The notes under the pieces are model-generated. The model was not told the DNA's origin. It saw only the letters and a list, made by a program, of their open reading frames with translations, and did no database searches. Positions 19,013-42,012 of a DNA stretch of 64,000 bases are shown here, in pieces. The stretch lies in assembly GCA_049696975.1 (NCBI GenBank), contig JBAVUW010000134.1:841-64840 (forward strand). The letters are read 5' to 3'. Source of the stretch: Candidatus Acidiferrales bacterium (GTDB taxonomy: Bacteria; Acidobacteriota; Terriglobia; Acidiferrales; UBA7541). A program made the translations under genes and the position numbers. Numbering within the stretch: position 1 is the first letter of the stretch; the number at the start of each line of letters is the position of its first letter.

Positions 19013-20401
<1,389 letters not shown>

Positions 20402-20428
20402 TCTTAGAAGGAACGTACTAATCGATCG

Positions 20429-21112
20429 ATGGCACAGATCTTTCATCGCAGCACGAACTTCGCAGCGCGGCTGAGCATTTTTGGCGGCGTGGTGATCCTC
20501 GGGCTGTTGAGTTTCGCGCTCTACGAGATTGCGCTCTCGCCCTGGTACACCCAGCAGTACGTGAAGCGGCAGCAGCCCGTGCCTTTCAGCCATCGCCACC
20601 ATGCCGGCGAGCTGGGCATCGACTGCCGCTACTGCCACACATCGGTCGAGAAATCGTCCTTTGCCGGCGTGCCGCCGACGCAGACCTGCATGACCTGCCA
20701 TTCGCAGATCTGGACGAACGCGGCGATGCTCGAGCCGGTGCGGCAGAGCTATCGCGACGACAAATCGCTCGAATGGATTCGCGTGAACGCACTGCCCGAT
20801 TTCGTCTATTTCGACCACAGCATTCACGTGGCCAAGGGTGTTGGCTGCACCACCTGCCACGGGCAAATCGCGGAAATGCCGCTCACCGAGCGCGCCGGAA
20901 CTTTATATATGTCGTGGTGCCTTGAGTGCCATCGGCAGCCTGAAAAATACGTGCGGCCGAAATCGGAGGTTTTCAATCCGTACTACGAGCCGCCGCCGGG
21001 CGACGAGCAGTTAAAGCTTGGCAAGGAGCTCGTGGCGGAATACAAGATTCAGGTGCCGCAGCATCCGGGCGACATGAAGCCGTTGCAGACCTGTTCGACG
21101 TGCCATAGGTGA
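20429..21112 (+). CDS. actA: Alternative Complex III pentaheme cytochrome c subunit ActA
   Basis: N-terminal TM anchor and five CxxCH motifs (CRYCH, CMTCH, CTTCH, CLECH, CSTCH). Confidence 0.82.
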   Translation: MAQIFHRSTNFAARLSIFGGVVILGLLSFALYEIALSPWYTQQYVKRQQPVPFSHRHHAGELGIDCRYCHTSVEKSSFAGVPPTQTCMTCHSQIWTNAAMLEPVRQSYRDDKSLEWIRVNALPDFVYFDHSIHVAKGVGCTTCHGQIAEMPLTERAGTLYMSWCLECHRQPEKYVRPKSEVFNPYYEPPPGDEQLKLGKELVAEYKIQVPQHPGDMKPLQTCSTCHR

Positions 21113-21125
21113 TGAAAGCGAGACG

Positions 21126-24182
<3,057 letters not shown>

Positions 24183-24185
24183 GTT

Positions 24186-24722
24186 ATGGCGAAGCCGAAA
24201 ATTTACGGCGTGATGGCGGAATTCGATTCGCCCGAAGCAGTGCTCGAGGCCGCGCACAAGACGCGCGGCGCCGGCTACAAGCGCATCGACGCGTTTTCGC
24301 CGATTCCCGTTCACGGGCTCGCGGAAGCCATCGGATTCGATTGGACGGTTCTGCCGGCGCTGGTTTTCTGCGGCGGTCTGGGCGGCGGTTTGACCGGTTT
24401 CGGAATGTGCTGGTACGCCAATGTGATCAGCTTTCCGCTCAATATCGGCGGAAAGCCGTTCAACAGCTGGCCGATGTGGATTCCCATCACCTTCGAGTTG
24501 ACCATTCTCGGCGCGGCGCTCACGGCCGTGTTCGGAATGCTTGCCCTGAATGGGCTGCCGTCGCCCTACCACCCGACGTTCAATGTCGAGCGGTTCGCCG
24601 GCGCCTCGACCGATAAGTTCTTTCTGTGCATCAAGGCGCGCGACGCGAAATTCGATCTCGCGCAGGCCAAGTCGTTTCTGGAAGGATTGAAGCCCGGGGG
24701 AGTTTTTGAAGTTGAGGAGTAA
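24186..24722 (+). CDS. actD: Alternative Complex III subunit ActD (DUF3341)
   Basis: YGVMAEFDSPEAVLEAA N-terminus, two TM helices, and its position after actB. Confidence 0.72.
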   Translation: MAKPKIYGVMAEFDSPEAVLEAAHKTRGAGYKRIDAFSPIPVHGLAEAIGFDWTVLPALVFCGGLGGGLTGFGMCWYANVISFPLNIGGKPFNSWPMWIPITFELTILGAALTAVFGMLALNGLPSPYHPTFNVERFAGASTDKFFLCIKARDAKFDLAQAKSFLEGLKPGGVFEVEE

Positions 24723-25386
24723 TTTCCAAGTGGCGGCTGTGGTGAATCGTTCGCGCCTGCGCGCTTTCGCGCTCGGATGCCTGGGCGCGGCGGCCCTGCT
24801 GCTGACTGGCTGCCGGCTTGACATGCACATCCAGCCGAAATACCTGCCCTACGAGCCGACCGATTTCTTCGGTGACGGCCGCTCCGAACGCCAGCCCGTT
24901 CCCGGCACTGTCGCGCGCGGCCAGTTGCGGCTCGACGAGTTGATGTTTACCGGGCGTGAAAACGGCGCGGTGGCCGACAAGTTTCCCTTCCCGATCACCA
25001 AGGCCGATCTTGACCGCGGCCGCGAGCGTTACAACGTTTACTGCACTCCGTGCCACGACTACAGCGGCACCGGACGCGGCATGATCGTTCAGCGCGGATT
25101 CCCGCAGCCGCCGTCCTATCACATCCAGCGCCTGCGCGACGCTCCCGCCGGACATTTCTTCGAAGTGATGACCAACGGATTCGGCGCCATGTACAGCTAC
25201 GCGGCGCGCGTCGAACCGGCCGATCGCTGGAGAATTGCGGCTTATATTCGTGTCCTGCAGCTCAGCCGCAACGCGAAAATCGACGACGTGCCCGAATCCG
25301 AACGCGCCAATCTGTCCCATGAGTCCGCCGACAATCGGGCGCAGCCGAATCCGAATTCCATGATGATGATGATGAAATCGAAATGA
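24706..25386 (+). CDS. actE: Alternative Complex III monoheme cytochrome c lipoprotein ActE
   Basis: Lipobox LLLTGC and a single CTPCH heme motif. The exact start is uncertain because the ORF overlaps actD by 17 nt. Confidence 0.7.
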   Translation: MKLRSNFQVAAVVNRSRLRAFALGCLGAAALLLTGCRLDMHIQPKYLPYEPTDFFGDGRSERQPVPGTVARGQLRLDELMFTGRENGAVADKFPFPITKADLDRGRERYNVYCTPCHDYSGTGRGMIVQRGFPQPPSYHIQRLRDAPAGHFFEVMTNGFGAMYSYAARVEPADRWRIAAYIRVLQLSRNAKIDDVPESERANLSHESADNRAQPNPNSMMMMMKSK

Positions 25387-26573
25387 CCGTCGCAGACTCA
25401 ATTCGGCCGGTGATTGACCGGGTGCAGAAGCGCGCCGTGGTCGTGGGCGCCGTCGGCGTGATCGCTACGCTCGCGCTGGGCTCTCACGATTGGACGCAGT
25501 TTTTCCATTCCTACCTTTTTGCCTACGTCTATTGGATGGTTTTCGCGATGGGTTCTCTCGCGTTCCTCCAGCTGCACCATATGACCGGCGGCAAATGGGG
25601 CCTGCCGATCCGCCGTATCCTCGAAGCCGGATCGCGCACGATTCCCCTGATGTTCGTCCTTTGGCTGCCGCTGCTGGCCGGAATCAAGAAAATCTACCCC
25701 TGGGCCGCGAATCCGGAGATGTTGGGCGACGAGCCAGCGGGTCATTTCCGCCGCTTTTGGCTTCAACCCGGATTTTTCATCGTGCGCGCCTTCATCTACT
25801 TCGCAATCTGGAGCTTGCTCGCCTTCCTGCTCAACAAATGGTCGGCTGAGCAGGACCGCACCGCCGATGTTCGTCTGAAAGACAAAATGAGCAGCCTCGC
25901 TGCTCCCGGCACGGTTCTCTGGGCGATCACCTGGTCCTGGGCCATGGTCGATTGGGTCATGGCGATTGAACCCATGTGGTACTCCTCGATCTACGGCATG
26001 GTGTTTATGGTCGTCGCGTGCCTGGCCGCCATTTCCTTTGGCGTCGTCATGTTGCGCATGCTCGATGGCTACCAGCCGCTGCACGATTCCTATGAGCCCG
26101 CGCGGCTTAATGATATTGGCAACCTCATGCTGACGTTCACGCTCCTGTGGACCTACATGTCATTCTCGCAGTTCCTGATCATCTGGTCCGGAAATCTGAA
26201 GCAGGAAATCCCCTGGTACAAAGTTCGTGCATTTACCTCCTGGGGATACATCGCTGCGGCCTTGCTGATCTTGCATTTCTTCGTGCCGTTTTTCATCTTG
26301 TTGCAGCGCCGCGTCAAGCGCCGCCTCGAGCGCCTCTCGGTCCTGGCGTTCTGGATGCTGTTGATCTCGCTCGTCGACGTTTTCTGGCTCATCGTGCCGG
26401 CGTTCCCGAACCAGCGCACGGGCCCCCATGTTTCACCAGTCGACATTTGCGCGCTCGTCGGTATCGGCGGCATCTGGATTAGCGCGTACATGGCGCAGCT
26501 GAAAAAAATGCCGCTGTTGCCGCTGCACGATCCACGGTTTGAAGGTGTGTTGGAGCATTCGCATGGCGACTAA
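25383..26573 (+). CDS. actF: Alternative Complex III membrane subunit ActF
   Basis: 396-aa polytopic protein with HHMTGGKWG and IIWSGNL motifs of the ACIII quinone-binding subunit 2 family. Confidence 0.7.
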   Translation: MTVADSIRPVIDRVQKRAVVVGAVGVIATLALGSHDWTQFFHSYLFAYVYWMVFAMGSLAFLQLHHMTGGKWGLPIRRILEAGSRTIPLMFVLWLPLLAGIKKIYPWAANPEMLGDEPAGHFRRFWLQPGFFIVRAFIYFAIWSLLAFLLNKWSAEQDRTADVRLKDKMSSLAAPGTVLWAITWSWAMVDWVMAIEPMWYSSIYGMVFMVVACLAAISFGVVMLRMLDGYQPLHDSYEPARLNDIGNLMLTFTLLWTYMSFSQFLIIWSGNLKQEIPWYKVRAFTSWGYIAAALLILHFFVPFFILLQRRVKRRLERLSVLAFWMLLISLVDVFWLIVPAFPNQRTGPHVSPVDICALVGIGGIWISAYMAQLKKMPLLPLHDPRFEGVLEHSHGD

Positions 26574-27108
26574 ACACGGAGAGAAACACGACGTCCCCGT
26601 TGACTCAAGCGCGGGCTGGGAAAAGCGCGACGTCAACATCAAGGGACTGTTCATCTTCGCCTTTTGGATGGCGGTGGTGCTGCTCGTCACCATGGTCGGC
26701 ATGAATTTCGCGTTCAAGGCGTTCAAGGAAGCGTCTCCGATGGGGCCCACCCGGTCACCCGTGGTTCAGGAAGGCGAGCGCATGATTCCGACCGGTCCCC
26801 TGCTTCAGGTGCATCCGCACCAGGAGCTCAAGGACTATTGCGACGCGCAGCAGAAAGAAGTTTCAACGTACGGTTGGATCGATCAATCGAGCGGCGTGGT
26901 CCGCATTCCGGTCGATCGCGCCGAGGAAATGCTTTTGGCCAAGGGTTTGCCCGCGCGTTCCGCCGCCGACGCGGCCGCCGCCGGCGCTCCCATGATCGCT
27001 CCGCCCACAGTTGCGGGTGACACCGACGTCGAAGGCCAGTGTGGTTATCTGGCCGAGCCGACGCTCGCCGACAGAGAACGCGCTGAAGCCAAGGAAGGAG
27101 AAAAGTAA
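26563..27108 (+). CDS. single-pass membrane protein of unknown function, ACIII/oxidase-associated
   Basis: ATG 26563 overlaps the actF stop by 11 nt. It has one TM helix (LFIFAFWMAVVLLVTMVGMNFAF) and a soluble domain. I recognise no family. Confidence 0.45.
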   Translation: MATKHGEKHDVPVDSSAGWEKRDVNIKGLFIFAFWMAVVLLVTMVGMNFAFKAFKEASPMGPTRSPVVQEGERMIPTGPLLQVHPHQELKDYCDAQQKEVSTYGWIDQSSGVVRIPVDRAEEMLLAKGLPARSAADAAAAGAPMIAPPTVAGDTDVEGQCGYLAEPTLADRERAEAKEGEK

Positions 27109-27111
27109 ACA

Positions 27112-28026
27112 ATGAAGTTGCCATTCAACCCGGTCGAGTTCTCCGTGGTCAAGACGTGCCTGGCGGGCGCGGCGTTCGCCGCTCTATTGCTCGCGCATGC
27201 TTCACCGGCCGCGGCTCAATTCACCGACCCGACGCAGAACATCGGCGTCCGTCCCGAGCTGCTCCAGCAGGTCGGCATCGACCAGAAGCTCAATCATCAG
27301 GTTCCCCTCGACCTTACGTTCCGCGACGAGCATGGCGGCAGCGTCGAGCTGGGCCAAGCGTTCGCCGGCAAGCCCGTTGTGCTCACCCTGGTGTATTACA
27401 ACTGCCCGATGCTGTGCACCCAGGTGCTCAACGCACTCGATCGCAGCCTGGAATCGATGCCGCTTGAAATCGGAAAGGATTTCAACGTCGTTACGGTCAG
27501 CATCGACCCGACTGATCGCGCTCCGATGGCGGACGCCAAGCATGCCATGTACGCCGGGATGTACCAGGGCGCGACCGGCCGCACCGGCGCGCAGTATGGC
27601 TGGCATTTCCTCACCGGAGATGAACCTCAGATCAAGGCACTGGCTGACTCCGTCGGCTTTCGCTACGCCTACGATCCTGATTCCAAGCAGTACGCGCACG
27701 CCAGCGCGATTATGGTTCTCACCCCGGACGGCAAGGTCTCGAAATATTTTTACGGCGTCACCTACCCCGCGCGCGACCTGCGCCTCGGTCTGGTGGACGC
27801 CTCGCAGGAAAAAATCGGCACGGTCGCCGATCAGGTGCTTCTGTTCTGCTATCACTACGATCCGCACACCGGCAAGTACGGCCTGCTGATCTCCCGGGTG
27901 ATGCAATTGGGCGGCCTGGCGACGGTGGTGGTCGGTGGAATTTTTCTGATCATTTTGTTCCGGGGCGAGCATTACCAGCTGCCCCGCAAGACAGGACCTC
28001 AGAGCCTGGGCAAGTCCCGGGCGTGA
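27112..28026 (+). CDS. SCO1/SenC family copper chaperone
   Basis: Thioredoxin-like CPMLC (CxxxC) motif, a downstream His, N-terminal signal and C-terminal TM. Located directly upstream of the oxidase genes. Confidence 0.8.
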   Translation: MKLPFNPVEFSVVKTCLAGAAFAALLLAHASPAAAQFTDPTQNIGVRPELLQQVGIDQKLNHQVPLDLTFRDEHGGSVELGQAFAGKPVVLTLVYYNCPMLCTQVLNALDRSLESMPLEIGKDFNVVTVSIDPTDRAPMADAKHAMYAGMYQGATGRTGAQYGWHFLTGDEPQIKALADSVGFRYAYDPDSKQYAHASAIMVLTPDGKVSKYFYGVTYPARDLRLGLVDASQEKIGTVADQVLLFCYHYDPHTGKYGLLISRVMQLGGLATVVVGGIFLIILFRGEHYQLPRKTGPQSLGKSRA

Positions 28027-28045
28027 AAAGGATTGCGACGATACG

Positions 28046-29038
28046 GTGATGATGGGCTCCATTCAATCCGGCTTTGAGATGCTGGCGTTTCTGCAGGCGG
28101 GCGGCTTTCAGCCGCCCGCGGCGTCCACGATCGCCGACAGCGTCGATCAGCTCTACTACCTGCTAAGCGGCATCACCATCTTTTTCTCCGTCCTGATTTT
28201 CTCAATCATTTTTTACTTCATGCTGAAATACCGCCGAAAGGCGCCCGGCGAAGAGGGGACGGAAACCCACACGCCGATGTCGCTCGAGCTCACCTGGACG
28301 ATCATCCCGTCGCTCATCTGCGTCGTGCTGTTCGTGTGGTCCTCGAGCCTCTACGTGCGCAACGGCCGTCCGCCGGTGGCTTCCACCGAAATTTTCGTCA
28401 TCGGCAAGCAGTGGATGTGGCACCTGCAGCATCCCGAGGGTCCCCGCGAAATCAACGAGCTGCACGTCGCGGTGGGCGTGCCCGTGAAGCTCACCATGAC
28501 GTCGCAGGACGTGATTCACGATTTCTATATCCCCGCCTTCCGCGTGAAGAAGGACGTTCTGCCCGGCCGCTACTCCTCGATCTGGTTCCAGCCAACTGAG
28601 ACCGGCACGTTCCATCTCTTCTGCGCGCAATATTGCGGCACGAACCATTCCGAAATGGTCGGCTGGGTGTATGTCATGTCGCCCACCGACTACGCCACCT
28701 GGCTTGCGGGCGGTGAAAAGACGGAGTCGATGGCCCAGCAGGGCGGGCGCCTCTTCAGCCAGTTCGGCTGCGGCGATTGCCATTCGGGCGACGCGGCCGG
28801 CCGCGGACCCTCTCTGGCGGGAATTTACGGAAGGCCGGAGAAGACGGCGACCGGTGAAACGCGAGTGATGGATGAATCGATGATCCGCCAGGCGATCTAC
28901 AATCCGGGTTCTCTTCACGTGGCGGGCTATCAGGCGATCATGCCGACCTATGCGGGGCAGATCGACGAGGAACAGATGCTCCAGCTGATCGCCTACGTGA
29001 AGTCGCTCGGCGCGGAAGAAAGGATCAACGGCAAATGA
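28046..29038 (+). CDS. ctaC: cytochrome c oxidase subunit II with fused C-terminal cytochrome c (caa3 type)
   Basis: Two N-terminal TM helices, the CuA site HDFYIP...[12 protein letters not shown], and a C-terminal CGDCH heme c motif. Confidence 0.88.
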
Positions 29039-30669
29039 GTACGGCAGTCGCGGAACTCCACGAAGCCCCTACCGAATCGCGCGTCAATTATCTCAACGCG
29101 ACCTACGGCATCCGGTCCTGGCTGCTCACGCTGGACCACAAGCGCATCGGACTTCTCTACCTGGGATCGATCACGCTCATGTTTTTCGTCGGCGGCATGG
29201 CCGCGGTGCTCATGCGCCTGCACCTCACCGAGCCGCAGGGCGCCCTGTTCGAGCCGGAAACCTATAACAAGATGTTCTCGACGCACGGGATCATTATGGT
29301 GTTTTTCTTCCTGGTGCCATCGATTCCCGCGACGCTCGGCAATTTCCTGATCCCGTTGATGATCGGCGCACGCGACGTAGCCTTCCCCAAGCTCAACCTG
29401 ATGAGCTGGTACATTTTCATCACCGGTGCGTCACTGGCACTCTACGCCACGCTTTCCGGCGGCGTCGACACGGGCTGGACGTTCTATCCGCCCTACAGCA
29501 GCACGTATTCCCATACCAACGTCACCATCGTGGCGCTCGGCGTCTTCGTCGCCGGATTTTCCTCCATCCTCACCGGCTTGAATTTCATCGTCACCATCCA
29601 CAAAATGCGTGCCCCGGGGATGACCTGGTTCCGCCTGCCGCTCTTCATCTGGGCCCTCTACGCCACGAGCTTGATTTTTGTTCTCGGCACTCCGGTCATC
29701 GCCATCACGCTCTTCCTGCTCGGCATGGAACGCATCCTGCACGTCGGCATCTTCGATCCGGCCGTGGGCGGCGATCCCCTGCTGTTTCAGCACCTTTTCT
29801 GGTTCTATTCGCACCCCGCCGTGTACATCATGATTCTGCCGGGCATGGGCGTGGTCAGCGAGCTGATTACCGCGTTTTCGCGCAAGAAAATTTTCGGCTA
29901 CGCCTTCGTCGCGTTTTCGAGCTTGTCCATTGCGATCATCAGCTTCGTCGTCTGGGGCCACCACATGTTCGTCACCGGCCAGTCGATCTACGCCGGCCTG
30001 GTGTTCTCGGTCCTGAGCTTCCTGGTGGCGATTCCCTCGGCGGTCAAAGTTTTCAACTGGACCGCCACGCTGTACAAAGGCTCGATCTCTTACGAAGCGC
30101 CGATGCTCTACGCTCTCGGCTTCATCGGTCTGTTCACCATCGGCGGCCTCACCGGCCTGTTCCTGGCATCGCTTGCCACGGACGTGCATTTGAACGGCAC
30201 CTACTTCATCGTCGCCCACTTCCATTACGTCATGGTCGGCGGCGCGGTCATGGCCTATATGGGCGGCCTGCATTTCTGGTGGCCGAAGATCACCGGGCGG
30301 CTTTATCCCGATCTCTGGGCGCGCATCGCTGCGGCGATTATCTTCCTCGGGTTCAACCTCACGTTCTTCCCGCAATTCGTGCTCGGCTATCTGGGGATGC
30401 CGCGCCGCTATGCGATTTACCCGCAGGAATTTCAGGTGCTCAACGTGATGTCGTCGGCCGGCGCTTCGATTCTGGGCATCGGCTACCTGATCCCGCTGAT
30501 CTATCTGATCTGGTCGATGCGCTATGGGCCGCCGGCAGGACCGAATCCCTGGGGCGCCAAGGGTCTCGAATGGACGATTCAATCGCCGCCCTTGACCGAA
30601 AATTTTGAGACGATTCCGGTCGTCACCGAAGAGGCCTACAACTACGGCTCAGGAGCCAGCAGTGTCTGA
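29035..30669 (+). CDS. ctaD: cytochrome c oxidase subunit I
   Basis: Heme-copper oxidase signature regions ([29 protein letters not shown]). Length 544 aa. Confidence 0.95.
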
Positions 30670-31330
30670 ACTAGCCCACGGCGCGCATCCGCAGGGATTC
30701 GCGCACCAATTCGAGGACATCGACCAGCAGCGCGATGCCGGCCGTCTGGGCATGTGGGTGTTCCTGGTCACCGAGATTCTGTTCTTCGGCGGCATGTTCA
30801 CGTCCTACATCATCTACCGCTTGCTGCACCTTCCTTCTTTTGTGCAGGGCAGCCACCAGCTGGTCGTCAAATTCGGCGCCACCAACACGGCCGTCCTGAT
30901 CTTCAGCAGCTTGACCATGGCTCTGGCCATCCGCTCCGCGCAGACCGGCAGGAAAAAGGGAACGATCATCTTCTGGCTGATCCTCACGATGATCCTGGGA
31001 GCGGCCTTCATCGCGATCAAGCTGCGCTTTGAATGGTATCGGGATTGGACGGAAGGTTTGATCCCCGGCGTACACTGGTTTTACAACGGTCCGCACGCGC
31101 CCGGCGTGAAGATGTTCATGTGCTTCTACTTCTTCATGACCGGATTGCACGCCGTGCACATGGTTGTGGGCCTCGGCATCCTGACCGTGCTCGTGATCAT
31201 GACCGCGCGCAACAGGTTTTCGTCCGAGTATTACCAGCCGCTCGAGATCAGCGGCCTGTACTGGCACTTCGTCGATATCGTCTGGATTTTTCTTTTCCCG
31301 CTGCTCTATCTGATCGGCGGGCGGTACTAA
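30662..31330 (+). CDS. ctaE: cytochrome c oxidase subunit III
   Basis: [14 protein letters not shown] and [14 protein letters not shown] motifs. Start set at GTG 30662, which overlaps the ctaD stop by 8 nt; the ORF-track start at 30605 is also possible. Confidence 0.83.
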
Positions 31331-31345
31331 CGGGAGCGGCAAGCG

Positions 31346-31717
31346 ATGTCCGATCACAACGAACACGGGACCTCGGGACACGTTGTTCCGATCAGCACCT
31401 ACCTAGCAGTTTTTGTCGCCTTGATGTTCGGCACGGGTCTCACCACCTGGATCGCCTACATCGACCTCGGCCAATGGAACACCGTCGTTGCGCTCGTGAT
31501 CGCCTTCTGCAAAATGATCCTGGTCGTGCTTTTCTTCATGCACGTGAAATATGCCACCGGCCTCACCCGCGTGGTCATCATCGCCGGCTTCTTCTGGCTT
31601 GCCATCATGATCACGCTGTCCTGCTCGGATGAACTCACCCGCACCTGGGAAATCGTTCCGCAAGGCTGGCTCGGCAACGGCAGCATGATCCTTCCGCTGA
31701 TTTCCCGCTGGTTCTAG
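31346..31717 (+). CDS. cytochrome c oxidase subunit IV family small membrane protein
   Basis: 123 aa with three hydrophobic helices and an AxxKxxLVVLFFMH motif typical of the prokaryotic subunit IV family. Confidence 0.68.
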   Translation: MSDHNEHGTSGHVVPISTYLAVFVALMFGTGLTTWIAYIDLGQWNTVVALVIAFCKMILVVLFFMHVKYATGLTRVVIIAGFFWLAIMITLSCSDELTRTWEIVPQGWLGNGSMILPLISRWF

Positions 31718-31997: not shown

Positions 31998-33770
31998 TCA
32001 CATCCACTTGTCGACGCTGAAGCTGCGGCCGTAGTTCATATTCGCGACCTGGAAGAAGGCGTTGGTTTGGCCGCCGCAGACGACGAGTTCGATGTTTTCG
32101 GCGCGGGGGAACAAGGGGATCGGCGCATCGTCGGGCAGTTTCCACCAGCTGGCCATGGGCTCTTCGCCTTTCAGCGCGCGCGGGTAGAGCCAGACGTGCG
32201 CGAGGAACGACTCCCGATATTCCTTGGCCGTGACCGTATAGTTCTTGAAGAGATACTGCTGCAGTTTTTCCTTTGTGTCGTAGCCCTGTTCGACGAGACC
32301 ATTCACGGTGAGTGGATCGAGCACCACAAGACAGTTGTACATGCGCGCGAGCGTGGGCAGCATGCTGCCGATCTGCTCGTCGAATTTGGGTTCGAGCGCG
32401 CCCGCGCCCTTCGCGCCGTGGCCCATGCGCATGTCCCAGCCGGCAAACACACTGACGACGTTCTCCTCGGGCTTGAATCCCTTTTGCACGTGCAGGGGGG
32501 TCCATTTGCTGCTTTTTTCGTCTTCCGCGATGACGCAGTTGTTGTAGTTGAGATTGTTGCCCTGGCCTCCCCAGTACGTCTGGCCGGGAATCGAGCCGGG
32601 TCCGAGATTTTTTCCGAGCAGCGACCAAGCGCGGCCGATCGTCGCGTTCGGTTGTGCGAATCCGCTCAGTGCGCCGATGCCATAATTCATGTTGAGCTTG
32701 TCGCGGATGGGCCCGTTAATCACCATCGCGTAGCCGAACGACGTGGTGGATCCGCCGAGCGCGAGCTCGCCGGACGCCGCGAGAGCAAGCACGATCGGGA
32801 AACAGGAAGGATCGCATCCGGCCATCACCGCGTTCACGGCGACCTGCTTCACGGTGTATTCGTAGGCGCCGTTGGCGGTGCGGCCGGCGCGCCCGACGAC
32901 CTCGTCCGGCTTGTGGCTGGTGCCTTTCAGCATCTCCGCCACTTTCGCCTCGGTGGGCACGACGATCGGCATGTAATCCGTCATCTGGTTGTTCATGAAA
33001 TAGGCTTGAAGATTGTCGAGCGTGTCCGGACCGAACGTCGCCGGGCCGGGGGACACGGGTTGGAGGCCCGTTTTCTCGTCCTCCGCAGTGAGGGGCGCGG
33101 TCAGTCCGGCGATCACTTCCTTCATGAACGGCTGATGGCTGACGGGATCGCTGGTGTCCAGAAACGCCCGGACCTGATCACCGGTCAGTCCCCAGATCGG
33201 GTGCACGGTGTAGGCGATGCGGAGCGTGGGCATGCCGCGCTGCGCCGCCGTCGATTTCGCGAGATCGACATACGCCTTGGTGATGATCGGCACGCTGGGG
33301 ACGCCCATCTTTTCCATCGTTACGCAGTGACTCACGGTCGCTGGGGTGCAGCCGCCTCAATGCCCAATGGCCATGATGCAGGCGGCTGCATTGGCCTTGA
33401 TCTCCGCCCACAGCTTCGGATCGTCCTCCGGATAGGTACCGGCTTTCTTGCGCGAGACGGTGGTGACGCTCGGCATGTTCTGTTTCATCCAGGCTTCCAC
33501 TTCGCGGATCATCACGTCGGCGGCCATGAAGCCGGTATCGACGAGATAGACCGTCTTGCCGTCGAGGTTGGTGATCGTGCGGGGCGCCATGGCGAAGCGC
33601 ATCACCGGAGGCGGCGTGCCTTTTGGGGTGAGCGCGACAAATTTCGGGTCGGGGGGTGTGGCTGGCGCGGTGTCTTTTTTGTGCTTGTCGCCCGCTGCGG
33701 ACGCGTTCGATGTGGCTAGAAGCGCTGGAGATACGCCTATTAAGGACAGCAGCCTACGGCGATTGATCAT
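31998..33770 (-). CDS. candidate Tat-leader selenoprotein (590 aa if TGA 33357-33359 is read as Sec; H-U-G-G-C motif), function unknown
   Basis: Two ORFs share one frame and are separated by one TGA. A purine-rich SD precedes only the upstream ATG at 33770. The leader is MINRRRLLSLIGVSPALLATSNASA. The junction sequence AIGH-U-GGCTPATVSHC is continuous. A hairpin lies 13 nt after the TGA. Confidence 0.5.
33325..33343 (-). promoter_or_regulatory. candidate SECIS-like hairpin downstream of in-frame UGA
   Basis: mRNA CAGCGAC-CGUGA-GUCACUG forms a 7-bp stem with one C.A mismatch and a GU-containing 5-nt loop. It starts 13 nt after the UGA. The stem is weak and was found by eye only. Confidence 0.25.
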
Positions 33771-33883
33771 TCCTTCCCCCTGGGCCGACTCTTACGACCG
33801 TCAACTTTAATGGGGCGCTCGGGAAAAGGCAACTGCGGGTCGAACAATTGTGTAGAAAGGCTTGGCCGCGGAGACGCCGAGCG

Positions 33884-35104
33884 CTAGGTGGCGCGGAAGG
33901 CTACTACGGCGTTTAGACCGCCGAAGGCGAAGGAGTTCGAGAGAGCGGCGGCTACTTTCTGTTCGCGGGGCTTGTTCGGGATGTAGTCCAGGTCGCATTC
34001 GGGATCGGCTTCGGTGAAATTTGCGGTCGGCGGCAGGATGCCGTGATAGAGCGCGAGAATCGTGGCGATGGCCTCGAGCGCGCCGGCGGCGCCAAGCGCG
34101 TGGCCGTGCATGGATTTTGTCGAGCTGACAGCGAGTTTCTTCGCGTGCGCGCCGAAGACTTCGTGGATTGCCTTTGTTTCTACGGGATCGTTGCCCGCGG
34201 TGCCGGTGCCGTGGGCATTGATGTAGCCGATTTCTTCGGGCGCGATACCGCTCTCGCGCAGGGCGCCGCGCATGGCGCGCGCGGGACCGTCGATGGTCGG
34301 CTGCGTGAGGTGATGCGCGTCAGATGTCATGCCCATGCCGCAGACCTCGGCGTAGATTTTCGCGCCGCGCGCGCGGGCCGAATCCATGGGCTCGAGAATC
34401 ATCATCGCGCCGCCTTCACCGAGAATCATACCGCGACGATCCTTGCTGAACGGACGGCAGGTGTCCGGAGCGACCACGCGCATCGCCTCCCACGCTTTCA
34501 GCATGCCGATGGTGAAGAACGCCTCGGCGCCGCCGGTGACGGCAAGATCGGCATCGCTGTCGCGCACCAGCCGAAACGCCTGGCCGATCGCGTGGTTCGC
34601 CGAAGAGCACGCAGTGGAAACGGTATAAACCGGACCGGCCAGCCCGAGATCCATCGAAATGTGGCTCGCGCCGGCGTTGGCCATGGTCTTGGGGATTGTG
34701 AGCGGATGAACGCGGCCCCGGCCCTGAACCCACAAATCCTCGAATCCGGATTCGATGGCCGCCTGTCCGCCAACGGCGGAGCCGCAAACGATCGCGGCGT
34801 TTTTCTTCTGTTCGGCAGTGAGCTCGAGTTGGGAATCGCGGAAGGCTTCGCGCGCGGCGACCACGGAGAATTGCGCGAAGCGGTCGAGCTGCGCGTCCTT
34901 GCCGCCGACAAAATGCTTCAGCGGGTCGAAGCCCCGGACCTGCGCGCCGTTCGGCATTTTCAGGCCGACGCCGGCTACGTCAGGCACCTGCAGCGGACCG
35001 ATGCCGGAACGGCCTTCGGAGAGAGATCTCCAGTTTTCGGAGAGATCCAGTCCCAGCGCTGAAATGATTCCCAGCCCGGTGATGGCGACGCGGCGCGGGG
35101 CCAT
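33884..35104 (-). CDS. beta-ketoacyl-ACP synthase II family (second, dedicated copy)
   Basis: Active-site Cys (VSTACSSANHAIG) and both His motifs (NAHGTGT, SMHGHALGAAG). Length 406 aa. Confidence 0.88.
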   Translation of the reverse strand: MAPRRVAITGLGIISALGLDLSENWRSLSEGRSGIGPLQVPDVAGVGLKMPNGAQVRGFDPLKHFVGGKDAQLDRFAQFSVVAAREAFRDSQLELTAEQKKNAAIVCGSAVGGQAAIESGFEDLWVQGRGRVHPLTIPKTMANAGASHISMDLGLAGPVYTVSTACSSANHAIGQAFRLVRDSDADLAVTGGAEAFFTIGMLKAWEAMRVVAPDTCRPFSKDRRGMILGEGGAMMILEPMDSARARGAKIYAEVCGMGMTSDAHHLTQPTIDGPARAMRGALRESGIAPEEIGYINAHGTGTAGNDPVETKAIHEVFGAHAKKLAVSSTKSMHGHALGAAGALEAIATILALYHGILPPTANFTEADPECDLDYIPNKPREQKVAAALSNSFAFGGLNAVVAFRAT

Positions 35105-35107
35105 CCG

Positions 35108-35389
35108 TTAGACCGCCGGGCTGGCCGAGCCGGTTGCGGCGCTGGGTGGAGCGGCGGCAATGATCTTCTTGATGCCCACCACGATGTCGTTGACGGTCTT
35201 GATGGAGCGGACGTCGTCGTCGGGAATCGAAATCTTGAAAGCGTTTTCGAGTTCAAACAGCAGTGTGAAGACGTCGAGGGAGTCGATGCCCATTTCCTGG
35301 AGGTTCGAGTCGATGGTGATGCCGTCCGCCGGGATGCGTTTCACGGACGCGAGTGTGGCGATTACCTTGTCTGCGACTTCATCGGCCAT
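35108..35389 (-). CDS. acyl carrier protein (divergent, with Ala/Pro/Ser tail)
   Basis: 93 aa with the phosphopantetheine site GIDSLD. Located 3 nt upstream of the KAS gene. Confidence 0.8.
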   Translation of the reverse strand: MADEVADKVIATLASVKRIPADGITIDSNLQEMGIDSLDVFTLLFELENAFKISIPDDDVRSIKTVNDIVVGIKKIIAAAPPSAATGSASPAV

Positions 35390-35652
35390 CGATTGAGCCC
35401 CCGTCGGTCACGCGCGGCGCGCTGAGGAACGAGCCTCGCCGCAGGTTTTGTTGCGCTTCCCTGAAGTTGCGCTTGTATCGGTAAAAGCTAGCCCACGGCA
35501 CGCAAGAAAGCAAATTCTAGCAGGACTGCCGGGCCGTTGGGGGCCTTTTTGCGGGCGCGCCGCAGGTGCTGGGGGCCGGGGAACGACAGTCTGTATGGCA
35601 TAATAACGAATACGAAAAGCGGGGAGGCGGGCTCCTGGATTTCGTCAAAACT

Positions 35653-36690
35653 ATGACTGCCGGGAAAAAACTACGCAAAAAGATGGCGGGCGTGCATCGA
35701 CGGATGCGCGAGCTGCAGAAGCTTGCCAAGGCGCTGGTTTCAACGCGCCATCCCCTGCTGGTGCACATCATTCCCATTCGGCGCTGCAACCTGGCTTGCA
35801 CGTACTGCAACGAGTTCGACGATTTCTCGAAGCCGGTGCCGACCGAAGAGATGTTCCGGCGGATCGACCGGCTGGGCGCCATGGGCACCGCGGCAGTGAC
35901 GATCAGCGGAGGCGAGCCGCTGCTGCATCCCGATCTCGACGCGATTATTTCGCGGATCCGGAAGAACGGGATGCTGGCCGGGATGATCACGAACGGCTAT
36001 CTGCTGGTGGCCGATCGGATCGAGCGGTTGAATCGCGCCGGGCTGGAGCATTTGCAGATCAGCATCGACAACGTGCAGCCGGACGACGTGTCGAAGAAGA
36101 GCCTGAAAGTTCTGGACGCGAAACTGGGGCTGCTGGCCGAACACGCGATGTTTCACGTGAACATCAATTCGGTGCTGGGCAGTGGAGTGAAAAATCCCGA
36201 AGACGCGCTGAAGGTGGCGCACCGGGCACTGGAACTGGGTTTCACATCCACGGTGGGGATTCTGCACGACGGCAACGGGCAGCTGGAGCCGCTGGGCACG
36301 CGCGAGCAGGAGATTTTTGAGGAAATCATGTCTCTGGGCAAGGCGTCGTTCACGCGCGTGAACGGTTTCCAGCACAACATCGCCGCAGGGCGCGAGAATG
36401 AATGGCGGTGTCGTGCGGGCTCGCGCTATCTGTACATTTGCGAAGACGGGCTGGTCCACTACTGCTCGCAGCAGCGCGGGCATCCGGGGATTCCGCTGGC
36501 CGACTACACGGCGGAGCAGCGGCAACGCGAATTCTTGACGAAGAAGGGTTGCGCGCCGCGATGCACGGTTTCGTGCGTGCATCAGATTTCGGTCGTCGAT
36601 CGCTGGCGCGCGCCGCAGAGATTCGACGGCGGCTCGCCAGCGACATCGGGATCGCTGGTGCAGCTCACCGGGCCCGCCGCGCGCGACTGA
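35653..36690 (+). CDS. radical SAM protein with SPASM/twitch-like C-terminal Cys domain
   Basis: CNLACTYC (CX3CX2C) and a GGEPLL motif, plus C-terminal CX12GX4C and CX3CX3C. The start is uncertain (GTG 35566, ATG 35653 or ATG 35683). Confidence 0.8.
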
Positions 36691-36744: not shown

Positions 36745-38352
36745 ATGGCCGCCACTGCTGAATACGCCGCGCGTCCTGCTTCCGTCGCGCAGGTGAATCC
36801 CTGGTTGATCGCCATCACGGTGATGGCCGCTACGTTCATGGAGGTGTTGGATACCAGCGTGGCGAACGTGTCTCTGCCGCACATTGCCGGAAATCTGTCG
36901 GCGGGAGTGGACGAAAGCACGTGGGTGTTGACGTCCTACCTGGTTTCCAACGCGATCGTGTTGCCCCTGACCGGATGGTTTTCCGCGCTTTTCGGGCGCA
37001 AGAGGTTTTTTATCGGATGCGTGATCATTTTCACGTTGAGCTCGCTGTTGTGCGGACTGGCGCCCTCACTGCCGATGCTGGTGCTGTTTCGCGTGATCCA
37101 GGGCGCGGGGGGCGGGGGAATGCAGCCGGTGTCGCAGGCCATCCTGGTCGATAGCTTTCCGCGCGAAAAGCAGGGCATGGCCATGGCGATTTACGGAATG
37201 GGTGTGGTGGTGGCGCCGACGATCGGGCCCACACTCGGCGGATGGATCACGGACAACTATTCGTGGCGATGGATTTTCCTGCTGAACGTCCCGATCGGCG
37301 TGACTTCGCTGCTGCTGATCTCGATGCTGATCCGTGAATCGGCGCGCGAGTCACGCGGAACGGCGAAGCAGGGCGTGAAGATCGACTTCATCGGTCTCGG
37401 GCTGCTGGCTGTGGGATTGGGTTTCTTGCAGATCGTTCTGGATAAGGGCCAGAGAGACGACTGGTTCGGGTCGCCCTTCATCGTCTGGGGCACGGTGATC
37501 TCGGTGGTGGCGCTGATCGGCCTGATTGTTCGCGAGCTCGCCGTCGAGAATCCGGTCGTGGACATACATTTATTCCGCGATCGAAATTTCGCCATTTCGA
37601 CATTCATGATGTACACCCTCGGCTTCGTGCTCTACGGCACCACCCTGCTGCTTCCGATCCTGATGCAGACGCTAATGGGTTATACGGCGATGGAGAGCGG
37701 CATGGTGCTGCTGCCGGGAGGTTTGTTACTGCTTGGGACTTTGCCCTTCGTGGGAATTCTGCTGAGCAAATTCGCTCCTAGATGGATCGTGGTGACAGGA
37801 CTGGTGGTGATGGCCACGGGGCTTTTCCAGCTCTCGCATCTCGCACTAAATGCGGGCGGCCGGTCGATGGTCTTCGATTGGGCCATTTCGCGAATGGGCA
37901 CGGCATTCCTGTTCGTGCCGATCAACGTGATGGCGTTTTATTTCGTGCCGAAGGGAAAGATGAACAACGCCTCCGGTTTGATCAATCTGGCGCGGAATAT
38001 CGGCGCGAGTACGGGGATCTCGTTTGTGACTACGATGCTGGACCGGCGGGCGCAGTTTCATCAGGATGTTCTTTCGGGCAATCTGCAGCGAACAAATCCG
38101 CATTTGCGGAGCGCGCTCTATCGCATCACGCACCTGATGATGACGAAGGGGCCGGATGCAGTCCACGCGGCAACGCAGGCGCAGGGGATGATCTATGCGC
38201 AATTGCAGCGCCAGGCGATGATGCTGTCGTTTGTGGATAATTTCCGTACGATGGCGCTCCTATGCGTGGCGGTGATTCCGCTGATGCTGATTATGAAGGG
38301 CCGGAGCAACTCGCGCGATGGTCGGCCTTCCACTCACGATCACGTGCATTAA
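36745..38352 (+). CDS. MFS transporter, DHA2 (EmrB/QacA) family, 14 TMS
   Basis: FMEVLDTSVANVSLPHIAG, LFGRKR and WRWIFLLNVPIG motifs. Length 535 aa. Confidence 0.85.
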   Translation: MAATAEYAARPASVAQVNPWLIAITVMAATFMEVLDTSVANVSLPHIAGNLSAGVDESTWVLTSYLVSNAIVLPLTGWFSALFGRKRFFIGCVIIFTLSSLLCGLAPSLPMLVLFRVIQGAGGGGMQPVSQAILVDSFPREKQGMAMAIYGMGVVVAPTIGPTLGGWITDNYSWRWIFLLNVPIGVTSLLLISMLIRESARESRGTAKQGVKIDFIGLGLLAVGLGFLQIVLDKGQRDDWFGSPFIVWGTVISVVALIGLIVRELAVENPVVDIHLFRDRNFAISTFMMYTLGFVLYGTTLLLPILMQTLMGYTAMESGMVLLPGGLLLLGTLPFVGILLSKFAPRWIVVTGLVVMATGLFQLSHLALNAGGRSMVFDWAISRMGTAFLFVPINVMAFYFVPKGKMNNASGLINLARNIGASTGISFVTTMLDRRAQFHQDVLSGNLQRTNPHLRSALYRITHLMMTKGPDAVHAATQAQGMIYAQLQRQAMMLSFVDNFRTMALLCVAVIPLMLIMKGRSNSRDGRPSTHDHVH

Positions 38353-39824
38353 GCCGATCGCCGGGCAAGGATTTTCACAAAGGAGCCTATGCGGAGCTCT
38401 TCTTGGGTCAGGTCCGTTATCGCTTCGACTTCGCCGGCCTCGAGCGCGCCGCAGTGGATTGCTTGTAGAAAATAGTTCAGCAGGCCCTGGACCATGGCTG
38501 CGTCGTCGAAGACGTGGCCTAGGCGCGTGGCTTGCGCGGCCTTTTCGAGGAAGTTGCGGAGGCGCGCGGCGGACGACTCGAGGTTTTCCAGAAAAAACAA
38601 ATAGACGGCGGCGAAGCGGGCGGGAAGTTGTGCCGGATGCAGGTCCCATCCCTGGTAGAAACCGTTTTCGAGCGCGCGGCGGACATGCTCGAACTCGAGC
38701 TTCCAACCCTGATGCACCGCGGCGCGATTCTCGTCGATCTGACGCGTGGCGAGCGCAAGACCGTCTTTCGCTGCGCGGTGTGGCGGGATCGGGAGAACAT
38801 TCAGGGGGCCGTCCGCGATGCGGATTCCCGTTTCGGCGAGCGCGACCTGCATTACCTGGCGGGCAAAATTGGATGCGGCATGCACTCCGGCGCTTTTCGG
38901 GGCGGCGATGCCGAGTGAGGCCGTGTAGTCAAACGGGCCAAAATGAGCCGCGACGCAGCGGCCGCGGGCGGCGCTGGCGAGCGCCAACAGATTTGTTTCG
39001 CCGCGCTCGTTGAAGATAGCCTGGGAAGTTTCGACCATCAACTCGATGCGTAGCGCGCCGGGATCGAAATCGAGCATGGGTTCAAGCCGCGAGCAGATGT
39101 CGGCGAGGGCGGCGACTTCGTCTGCCAGGGCGACCTTGGGCAAGGTAATGCAGAAATGGGGCGGCAGTTTGCCGCGCGATTTCCCCGCAAGCTCCGTAAG
39201 GAATATGTCGAGCGTGCGGATGCTGCGGTCGCGAAGCTCTTCGGTCAAAGGCTTGATGCGAACGCCGATGAACGGGGGTAGTTCGCCGGCGTCCATGCCG
39301 TTACTGATCTCGGCTGCGGCTGATACGGCGTGGGCGTCCTCTTCGTCGTCGGGGCGATTGCCATAGCCATCCTCGAAATCGAGCCGGAAATCTTCGACCG
39401 GCTCCCGGCGCAACTTTTCGCGAACACGCCGGTAAATCGTGTGCGCGAGCCAAGCGTTCTGATTTTCGCGTCGCGCCACCTGCGGATCCGATTCGATCGA
39501 TCGCGCAATCGACGCGGTCGCATCGGGCGCCGCGGGCAGGCTGGACGCACCCGGGAGGCCGATGGCTTTCGCGAACGCCGCGAAGTCCGGCGCGTATTCG
39601 TCGAGTGAGCGCAGAGCCAGATCGCCAAGTCGCCGCGCGGTGCCGGAACGAAACAGATGTGCGCCACCGTACACGACGTGGACGGGTTGCCGTTCGGCGC
39701 CCACGCCTGGATAGCGGCGTTGGAGGGCTTTGTGCGCCTGCTCGAGGCGGACGGCGATCTCCTGGAGCGATTCGGGGGGCAGCGTGCGCTTCATGAAACC
39801 TTTCGCGTGGTTTACCGCTTCCAA
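38349..39824 (-). CDS. HpcH/CitE/malate-synthase-like aldolase superfamily protein (tentative)
   Basis: 491 aa with DFEDGYG and a TIM-barrel-like pattern reminiscent of the aldolase/citrate-lyase family. Recognition by eye only. Confidence 0.4.
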   Translation of the reverse strand: MEAVNHAKGFMKRTLPPESLQEIAVRLEQAHKALQRRYPGVGAERQPVHVVYGGAHLFRSGTARRLGDLALRSLDEYAPDFAAFAKAIGLPGASSLPAAPDATASIARSIESDPQVARRENQNAWLAHTIYRRVREKLRREPVEDFRLDFEDGYGNRPDDEEDAHAVSAAAEISNGMDAGELPPFIGVRIKPLTEELRDRSIRTLDIFLTELAGKSRGKLPPHFCITLPKVALADEVAALADICSRLEPMLDFDPGALRIELMVETSQAIFNERGETNLLALASAARGRCVAAHFGPFDYTASLGIAAPKSAGVHAASNFARQVMQVALAETGIRIADGPLNVLPIPPHRAAKDGLALATRQIDENRAAVHQGWKLEFEHVRRALENGFYQGWDLHPAQLPARFAAVYLFFLENLESSAARLRNFLEKAAQATRLGHVFDDAAMVQGLLNYFLQAIHCGALEAGEVEAITDLTQEELRIGSFVKILARRSA

Positions 39825-41070: not shown

Positions 41071-42012
41071 CTACTTCTTCAGCCGGGAATCTCCCGAGTA
41101 AACCACGAACCGGCGGCCGCGCAGGAAGCCGATCAACGTCTGGCCCATTTCGCGGGCCAGGCGCACGGCGAGGCTTGAGGGCGCTGAGACCGACGCTACC
41201 ACCGGCAAGCCCGCCACGATCGCTTTCTGCACGATTTCGAATCCCCCGCGGCCGCTGACAACCAGGATCGTGTCGCCGAGCGGGACGCGGTCATCGAGCA
41301 GGGCCCATCCGATTACTTTGTCCACGGCGTTGTGCCGGCCGATGTCTTCGCGCAGCACGAGTAGTCCTCCCGTAGCGTCGAAGAGCGCGGCGGCGTGGAG
41401 GCCGCCGGTTCGGCCGAAGACGGCTTGCGATTCGCGTAGCGTTACGGGGAGGCGTACGAGGATTTCGGGATCGAGCCTGAAATCAGGATTGGGTGCAGAG
41501 AGCGTGCGCGCGCGGATCGCATCGATCGTCGCCTTTCCGCAGATGCCGCAGCTCGACGCCGCGAAAAAATTACGGCGCATTTTGTCCGAATCGTAGTCCG
41601 CGTCCCGATCGAGCCTCGCGCTAACCAGGTTGCCCCGATTTTCCCCCGCGTCCATCGATTCGAGCTCCTCCAGCATGAGGATTTGGGCGCGGCGCTGTAC
41701 GAGGCCTTCTGTGAAGAGAAAACCGGCGGCGAGTTCGATGTCATGTCCCGGCGTGCGCATGGTAACGCTCAGCGGATTGTGGCCTATGCGAATTTCGAGA
41801 GGCTCTTCGGTTGCCAGGTAGTCTTCTTTGCGGTGGGATTTGCCGTCGTCCCATTCCGTGACTTGGGTCAGATCGATACTGCGCGCTTTGCGGGCCAAAG
41901 GATTGTCTCCGGGTGGAAAGAATACATTGGTTTCGCGGCGGGAGCGCGTCAATCGTCCCTGCGCGCCTCCCGGGAGCGCCCGGTGTTCCAATCCTTCCAA
42001 AAGCGCCACCAA
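41071..42012 (-). CDS. fdhD: formate dehydrogenase accessory sulfurtransferase FdhD
   Basis: SSCGICGK active-site loop, GGLHAAALF and RHNAVDK motifs. The true start is probably downstream of 42012. Confidence 0.8.
   Translation of the reverse strand: MVALLEGLEHRALPGGAQGRLTRSRRETNVFFPPGDNPLARKARSIDLTQVTEWDDGKSHRKEDYLATEEPLEIRIGHNPLSVTMRTPGHDIELAAGFLFTEGLVQRRAQILMLEELESMDAGENRGNLVSARLDRDADYDSDKMRRNFFAASSCGICGKATIDAIRARTLSAPNPDFRLDPEILVRLPVTLRESQAVFGRTGGLHAAALFDATGGLLVLREDIGRHNAVDKVIGWALLDDRVPLGDTILVVSGRGGFEIVQKAIVAGLPVVASVSAPSSLAVRLAREMGQTLIGFLRGRRFVVYSGDSRLKK

Follow-up and report, generated by a model that had tools for sequence, protein, structure and literature searches.

The subject of this analysis is a gene on the reverse strand of a 64,000 nt stretch of DNA from Candidatus Acidiferrales bacterium (assembly GCA_049696975.1, contig JBAVUW010000134.1, positions 841 to 64,840), hereafter called the window. 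A sequence-only reading of the window had proposed that an in-frame TGA joins two open reading frames (ORFs) into one candidate selenoprotein gene. Our re-reading of the layout confirmed this observation: the ORFs 33357..33770(-) and 31998..33335(-) share one frame and the TGA at 33357-33359 is the only stop between them. Conceptual read-through yields 590 residues with the stretch ...IMAIGH-U-GGCTPATVSHC..., in which U stands for selenocysteine (Sec). The purine-rich run claimed to lie right before the upstream ATG is indeed there, as read from the sequence. The apparent GTG start of the downstream ORF (33335) is codon +8 past the TGA, and, again as had been claimed, it sits inside the loop of a hairpin and the sequence ahead of it shows no ribosome-binding site. 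The GC content at third codon positions (GC3) is 0.75 and 0.82 for the two halves of the ORF around the TGA, and the codon bias is normal. No paralog of the gene was found within the window. The features of the gene are collected in Table 1.

Table 1. Features recognised or predicted in and around the candidate selenoprotein gene, in window coordinates.
Feature	Position	Strand	Remarks
Complete coding sequence, predicted 590-residue selenoprotein	31998..33770	(-)	ATG at 33770 to TGA stop at 31998-32000, one internal UGA
Shine-Dalgarno-like purine-rich run GGGGGAAGGA	33771..33780	(-)	directly 5' of ATG 33770; read from sequence
N-terminal leader MINRRRLLSLIGVSPALLATSNASA	33696..33770	(-)	twin-arginine motif, hydrophobic core, A-S-A end
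UGSC domain, residues 60-202, alpha/beta	33165..33593	(-)	PF24696, 100 bits
Putative UGA codon for selenocysteine, residue 138	33357..33359	(-)	Cys in homologs; TGA in 164/186 copies
U-G-G-C motif (U138, C141)	33348..33359	(-)	predicted selenosulfide redox pair
Candidate SECIS element CAGCGAC-CGUGA-GUCACUG	block 33324..33344, hairpin 33343..33325	(-)	13 nt past the UGA; invariant synonymous sites
Cys149, third conserved Cys	33324..33326	(-)	leader-bearing clade only
C-terminal domain, residues 205-590	32001..33158	(-)	many invariant polar residues, no conserved Cys

A homology search over ~5.8 billion proteins recovered 2537 homologs. Among the best 120 of these, about 40 are full length (572-615 aa) and about 80 are only 431-443 aa long and begin with MEKMG or MGVP, just past the position of the TGA, the form expected from gene callers that meet a TGA as a stop. 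All 37 full-length homologs (37/37), each a single ORF, carry Cys at the TGA codon within the motif H-C-[AGS]-[GT]-C-T-P-A-T-V-x-H-C. We further collected 160 related loci, drawn from genomes of species representatives and from metagenomes, and compared 186 gene copies (L-numbers below label these loci and P-numbers homologous proteins). The aligned codon is TGA in 164 copies, TGC or TGT in 20 and another codon in two, so the expectation that homologs would show Cys or Sec at this site was borne out. The TGA forms were found in Acidobacteriota, Chloroflexota, Thermodesulfobacteriota, Alpha-, Beta- and Gammaproteobacteria, Actinomycetota and others. The protein is strongly conserved before as well as after the TGA and has invariant columns in both parts, which means that coding-type conservation does continue past it, and the Cys-type orthologs turned out to be single ORFs, not separate genes. 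At species level, a Candidatus Acidiferrales metagenome-assembled genome comes closest (L001, 91 % identity), and the window gene shares 91-98 % identity with further Sec-type copies (L001, P0011). As TGA terminates 21 of the 55 genes called in the window, one of them being the fragment that ends at 33357-33359, it is an ordinary stop there, and we rejected a reassigned genetic code as the explanation.

The N-terminal module could be assigned at the Pfam level. The sequence-only reading had pointed to the 'UGSC family (seleno)protein' of NCBI, and Pfam PF24696 matches with 100 bits (gathering threshold 25) over residues 60-202, corresponding to profile positions 16-157 of 172. The NCBIfam equivalog model NF041046, which describes a protein of ~147 residues, gives 84.6 bits, below its curated cutoff of 125. 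Long-form proteins that NCBI itself names UGSC also stay under this cutoff (50-78 bits), so the model apparently describes short-form proteins, with the long form as a distinct subfamily. In comparison with the model, the window protein adds the leader and a C-terminal domain of 385 residues, and its motif is H-U-G-G-C instead of D-U-G-S-C. The suggestion that such an architecture had not been described did not hold, as NCBI and UniRef give the UGSC name to proteins of ~545-590 aa with the same layout, among them the leader-bearing Acidobacterial P0068 and P0070 and proteins of cultured Sphingobium, Phaeobacter, Neorhizobium, Roseomonas and Agromyces. Moreover, the 2008 marine metagenome survey by Zhang and Gladyshev in PLoS Genetics notes a 'UGSC/Unknown_1 fusion' (PMC2398784). 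The 'UGSC-containing protein' has counted as a selenoprotein family since the marine metagenome surveys, with 255 Sec and 21 Cys members in the Global Ocean Sampling data (PMC2398784). The U-x-x-C motif, mostly with Sec and occasionally with Cys, is shared between that set and ours (164 against 20). The family was still listed as uncharacterised in a 2026 review (PMC13188914). As judged from these matches, the window gene is an additional member of a catalogued family and not a new architecture.

The sequence-only reading had also placed a hairpin about where bacterial selenocysteine insertion sequence (SECIS) elements sit. Within the clade of leader-bearing proteins to which the window belongs, the string CCAGCGACCGUNNGUCACUGC and the same hairpin are kept in 36 of 36 distinct Sec-type sequences, with a mean energy of -7.7 kcal/mol and -5.2 kcal/mol in the U-G-G-C subclade of the window. 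All five Cys-type genes (5/5) encode the same peptide with other synonymous codons (CCC/CCG, GGC/AAC, CAU) and have lost the hairpin (mean -3.0 kcal/mol). Across 39 Sec-type genes the third-position entropy is exactly 0 at codons +5, +6, +7, +9, +10 and +11, which form the two arms, and reaches 1.37 bits at the loop codon +8 and 0.6-1.8 bits at the flanking codons. In other phyla the equivalent hairpin pairs RNA positions 14-20 with 25-31, usually around a GGUC loop, and its stem shows compensating changes. Covariation scores 0.354 in this hairpin, compared with 0.149 on average after shuffling (none of 500 shuffles attains 0.354) and 0.03-0.15 for slid controls, and both sides have changed in five of seven pairs. 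G22 and U23 never vary, but since they also supply the first and second base of a conserved Val codon, they do not count as independent evidence. These patterns at synonymous sites support a functional RNA element exactly at the proposed hairpin, and by the same comparison it is shown to be under selection only in relatives that carry the UGA.

The E. coli fdhF SECIS, whose apical loop is GGUC, offers a known parallel. Like it, the window hairpin lies within the coding sequence shortly past the UGA, and in most non-Acidobacterial members a stem of 6-9 bp is capped by GGUC at RNA positions 21-24. The hairpin of the window clade differs in being located ~3 nt further downstream, in its C.A mismatch and in its loop, which is GUN or CGUGA.

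Two further signals were noted around the UGA. In an 84-nt fold, the upstream segment GCAGCCGCC pairs with GGCGGCUGC at codons +1 to +3, so that the UGA is enclosed by a helix (33362-33400(-)); this helix is specific to the window and not significant (z=-0.89), and the synonymous sites upstream of the TGA show no conservation in relatives. An Rfam match to 'mir-2355' on the plus strand, at the same helix, was rejected as a chance hit.

The leader had been described as twin-arginine-like in the original proposal. The arginine pair is present in 33 of 35 leaders of full-length homologs, in the consensus N-R-R-K-L-L-S-L, with a core of moderate hydrophobicity and then A-x-A behind it. Most homologs from other phyla are leaderless and start ~96-108 residues before the Sec. 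The window protein is likely exported, and the twin-arginine translocation (Tat) pathway is a plausible route. The Tat assignment was only partly borne out: the conserved arginines, the core and the A-S-A end fit, but the Tat-signal hidden Markov model TIGR01409 did not match the window leader, and a typical homolog leader scored 13.9 bits (E 0.053), below the cutoff of 16.7. We weighed the reading that the leader is not a Tat signal and serves export by the general secretion pathway or stays as an uncleaved N-terminal membrane anchor. The sub-threshold scores speak for it, as do the relatives L019 and L053 of other phyla, whose N-termini lack the arginine pair and resemble general secretion signals or lipoboxes. 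However, a conserved arginine pair of this pattern is typical of Tat signals and needless for general secretion signals, and its retention in nearly all leaders of the clade makes the alternative unlikely.

Taking the gene layout, the homologs and the hairpin together, we regard 31998..33770(-) as one 590-residue selenoprotein gene, a long-form member of the UGSC family in which the internal TGA almost certainly encodes Sec, and put the probability of this reading at roughly 0.85. Several observations weigh against it. The window hairpin is short (3+3 bp around the C.A mismatch, 5-nt loop) with about -5 kcal/mol. The 40 nt after the UGA folded alone give z=+0.97 against shuffled sequences and a minimum-energy fold different from the proposed hairpin; with 84 nt of context the minimum-energy fold includes the hairpin, but that fold is still not significant. 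No Rfam family matched the hairpin, and Rfam gave no SECIS match at gathering or E<=10 thresholds. As the hairpin arms are invariant in the leader-bearing clade, there is no covariation in it, and the SECIS case for this clade consists of the synonymous-site conservation and a comparison with only five Cys-type genes. The support for the element comes from comparison between relatives, and there it is strong. Furthermore, no neighbour of the gene in the window recurs beside homologs, and the redox mechanism and partners considered below are derived from the motif and the gene neighbourhood only.

The last point of this kind concerns the decoding machinery. We found no tRNA and no Rfam match in the 64-kb window, and the 20 larger ORFs that were examined for SelA, SelB and SelD included none of them. 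Sec decoding in this genome is therefore an inference. Relatives encode SelB (401 bits, cutoff 242) and SelD (497 bits, cutoff 299) within a few kb of the family gene in nine locus instances, and tRNA-SeC adjoins it in L047, L058 and L124.

The absence of the machinery from the window leaves room for a selenoprotein-derived gene in a lineage that has lost Sec decoding, where the UGA would terminate translation or allow some low-level read-through with Cys or Trp, in a gene that is decaying. The window hairpin, the weakest variant of its clade (-5.2 against -7.8 kcal/mol), could be seen in the same light. However, this variant is common to the whole GGC subclade and is therefore maintained, not decaying; the reading frame is unbroken before and after the TGA, each half has a normal codon bias, and the 91-98 % identity to the Sec-type copies L001 and P0011 does not fit a gene in decay, so we judge this loss very improbable. 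That the TGA is a true stop, leaving a nonsense-broken pseudogene or a 137-aa exported protein followed by a 445-aa protein from GTG 33335, is barely credible: gene callers yield just such a split, as in the ~80 short calls among the best 120 homologs, and TGA works as a normal stop in this genome, but the codon is retained in 164 copies across phyla with strong coding conservation on both flanks, Cys-type homologs are single ORFs, the downstream GTG lacks a ribosome-binding site and sits in the hairpin loop, and the conserved RNA element is confined to TGA-type genes.

In the selenoprotein reading, residues 138 and 141 would form a redox pair. U/C138 and C141 are the Cys positions retained across nearly the whole family. 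We used AlphaFold to model P0015, the closest homolog with HCGGC (pLDDT 79.7, pTM 0.73; the predicted local distance difference test and template modelling scores), and in the model the Sec-equivalent Cys lies in a loop after strand 125-129, while the partner Cys begins helix 136-149. The predicted structure thus agrees with the earlier suggestion of a U-x-x-C motif at a strand-to-helix junction. In the Foldseek searches the UGSC module gave local matches to PTS-IIB-like and flavodoxin-like alpha/beta folds, and the whole chain only local ones with low TM. The further Cys noticed eight residues on (C149) is invariant in 38 of 38 members of the leader-bearing clade but is replaced by A, G, S or T in most other phyla. 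The 'CDPSC' pair pointed out in the C-terminal domain fared worse and was rejected as a feature, since C319 is Ala in 22 and C323 is Tyr in 37 of 38 sequences.

The C-terminal domain could not be placed, as the sequence-only reading had also found. Its 385 residues have no relative in Pfam, NCBIfam or the PDB by sequence or profile search. Modelled alone, the domain reached pLDDT 81 and pTM 0.77, and a Foldseek search of the PDB with this model gave no structural neighbour (best E 0.16, TM no higher than 0.21). Relatives of the domain amount to 3248 representatives at 50 % identity. In nearly all of them it follows a UGSC module within one fused protein, and no further Pfam domain hinting at function was seen in relatives of atypical length (~710 aa and ~370-400 aa).

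The resemblance to selenoprotein B of glycine and proline reductases that had been suggested is restricted to the Sec region. GrdB, GrdF, GrdH and PrdB share the U-x-x-C redox motif, and the GrdB/GrdF/GrdH models show weak local similarity of window residues 123-189 to model positions 331-399 of ~435 (E 0.02-0.08); P0015 reaches E 0.003-0.005 with the GrdB-type models, again in the Sec region only. However, the scores of 12-17 bits compare with cutoffs of 600-800, nothing matches the N-terminal region of GrdB, and the domain order is reversed, the Sec module being N-terminal in the window protein. No GrdA, GrdE or PrdA partners were found in the window. A second comparison is offered by FdnG of formate dehydrogenase-N, a Tat-exported periplasmic selenoenzyme with molybdopterin and FeS cofactors. 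The putative twin-arginine leader and the internal Sec codon are common to both, but the window protein has no recognisable cofactor-binding domain and its site is of the thiol-type U-x-x-C kind.

Variants of the family were encountered in the fetched loci. Three UGSC-like genes in L065 (L065:1301, 3085 and 13195) have an in-frame TGA and no partner Cys (GVAW-U-SGAVW or GVCW-U-TGAVW), and may be a Sec-only variant of the module. A full-length member at L045:6283 has Leu (CTA) at the Sec/Cys site and also misses the partner Cys (GQLDTNAPATV); by these residues it is a putatively redox-dead or repurposed copy. Short canonical UGSC genes (GD-U-GSC or GD-U-GTF) lie within a few kb of long forms in some Thermodesulfobacteriota and Desulfatiglans loci (L028:266, L029:5039(-) and L040:4048). 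Two or three tandem paralogs are frequent in Acidobacterial genomes (L002:587, 2477 and 4395; L006, L007, L008, L010, L017, L085 and L087), and the array in L002 combines two Cys-type copies with one Sec-type copy.

Regarding the gene neighbourhood, an acyl carrier protein gene (35108..35389(-)) and a FabF-like ketosynthase gene (33884..35104(-)) are located directly upstream of the selenoprotein gene. They are not conserved next to any homolog, so we rejected them as a functional link. A radical S-adenosylmethionine (radical-SAM) gene (35566..36690(+)) diverges from this pair, and the region 33884-36690 may be a small lipid or secondary-metabolite cassette. On its other side, the selenoprotein gene abuts the end of an opposite-strand respiratory operon (19013-31717(+)), which encodes an NrfD-like membrane subunit, a 1018-aa subunit of the molybdopterin/FeS type (alternative complex III-like) and cytochrome oxidase subunits II, I, III and IV. 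Further away, the window contains a gene for a 491-aa DUF6986 protein (38349-39824(-), 537 bits) with weak similarity to malate synthase and HpcH/HpaI TIM-barrel proteins. It also contains an FdhD/NarQ-family gene (41071-42012(-), 228 bits) and no formate dehydrogenase gene near it, which hints at a molybdoenzyme, possibly a selenoprotein FdhA, elsewhere in the genome.

Recurrent neighbours were found in the fetched loci. A gene for a thioredoxin-reductase-family flavoprotein (267 bits on TIGR01292, cutoff 343) adjoins leaderless homologs in 24 loci. The grd operons include thioredoxin and thioredoxin reductase, and the neighbour of the cytoplasmic homologs parallels the latter. PQQ (pyrroloquinoline quinone)-dehydrogenase-like proteins and dihaem cytochromes c recur beside the leader-bearing homologs.

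From the motif and these neighbours we infer the following scheme. SelB together with Sec-tRNA(Sec) would recognise the hairpin and insert Sec at residue 138. In the Acidobacterial clade the product probably goes to the periplasm, given its twin-arginine-type leader, and most homologs of other phyla would be cytoplasmic. At the strand-to-helix junction of the alpha/beta domain, U138 and C141 would form a reversible selenosulfide, and through it reducing equivalents would move to or from a substrate. The C-terminal domain of ~385 residues would hold this substrate and is the part likely to serve catalysis or substrate binding. In the cytoplasmic relatives the selenosulfide would probably be recycled by the dedicated thioredoxin-reductase-like flavoprotein encoded next door, at the expense of NAD(P)H; for the exported clade the adjacent c-type cytochromes and PQQ-dehydrogenase-like proteins are candidate partners. 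A selenosulfide oxidoreductase is our best guess for the function. One step further, the leader-bearing clade could represent a periplasmic selenoenzyme with a catalytic C-terminal fold for which neither a solved nor a curated relative exists, and be connected to c-type cytochromes or PQQ-type dehydrogenases and not to NADPH and thioredoxin reductase. We offer this wiring tentatively and consider it rather unlikely.

The window gene leaves selenoprotein biology unchanged in kind. The family it belongs to is very large and strongly favours Sec over Cys, and standard gene callers split or shorten such genes: about two thirds of the relatives (best 120 of 2537) are recorded as 431-443-aa fragments. 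A cultured example is Pseudonocardia acaciae DSM 45401 (L076:6040-7707 on NZ_JIAI01000001.1, TGA at L076:6328), whose copy is present in public databases only as a 425-aa 'hypothetical protein' (P0121), apparently a mis-annotated selenoprotein. For experiments, the family offers as handles a precisely delimited putative SECIS, the conserved thioredoxin-reductase-like candidate partner of the cytoplasmic forms, and an exported clade with other candidate partners. If the cytochrome- and PQQ-wired periplasmic selenoenzyme were true, soil bacteria would possess a selenosulfide redox enzyme of a new kind that works outside the cytoplasm.

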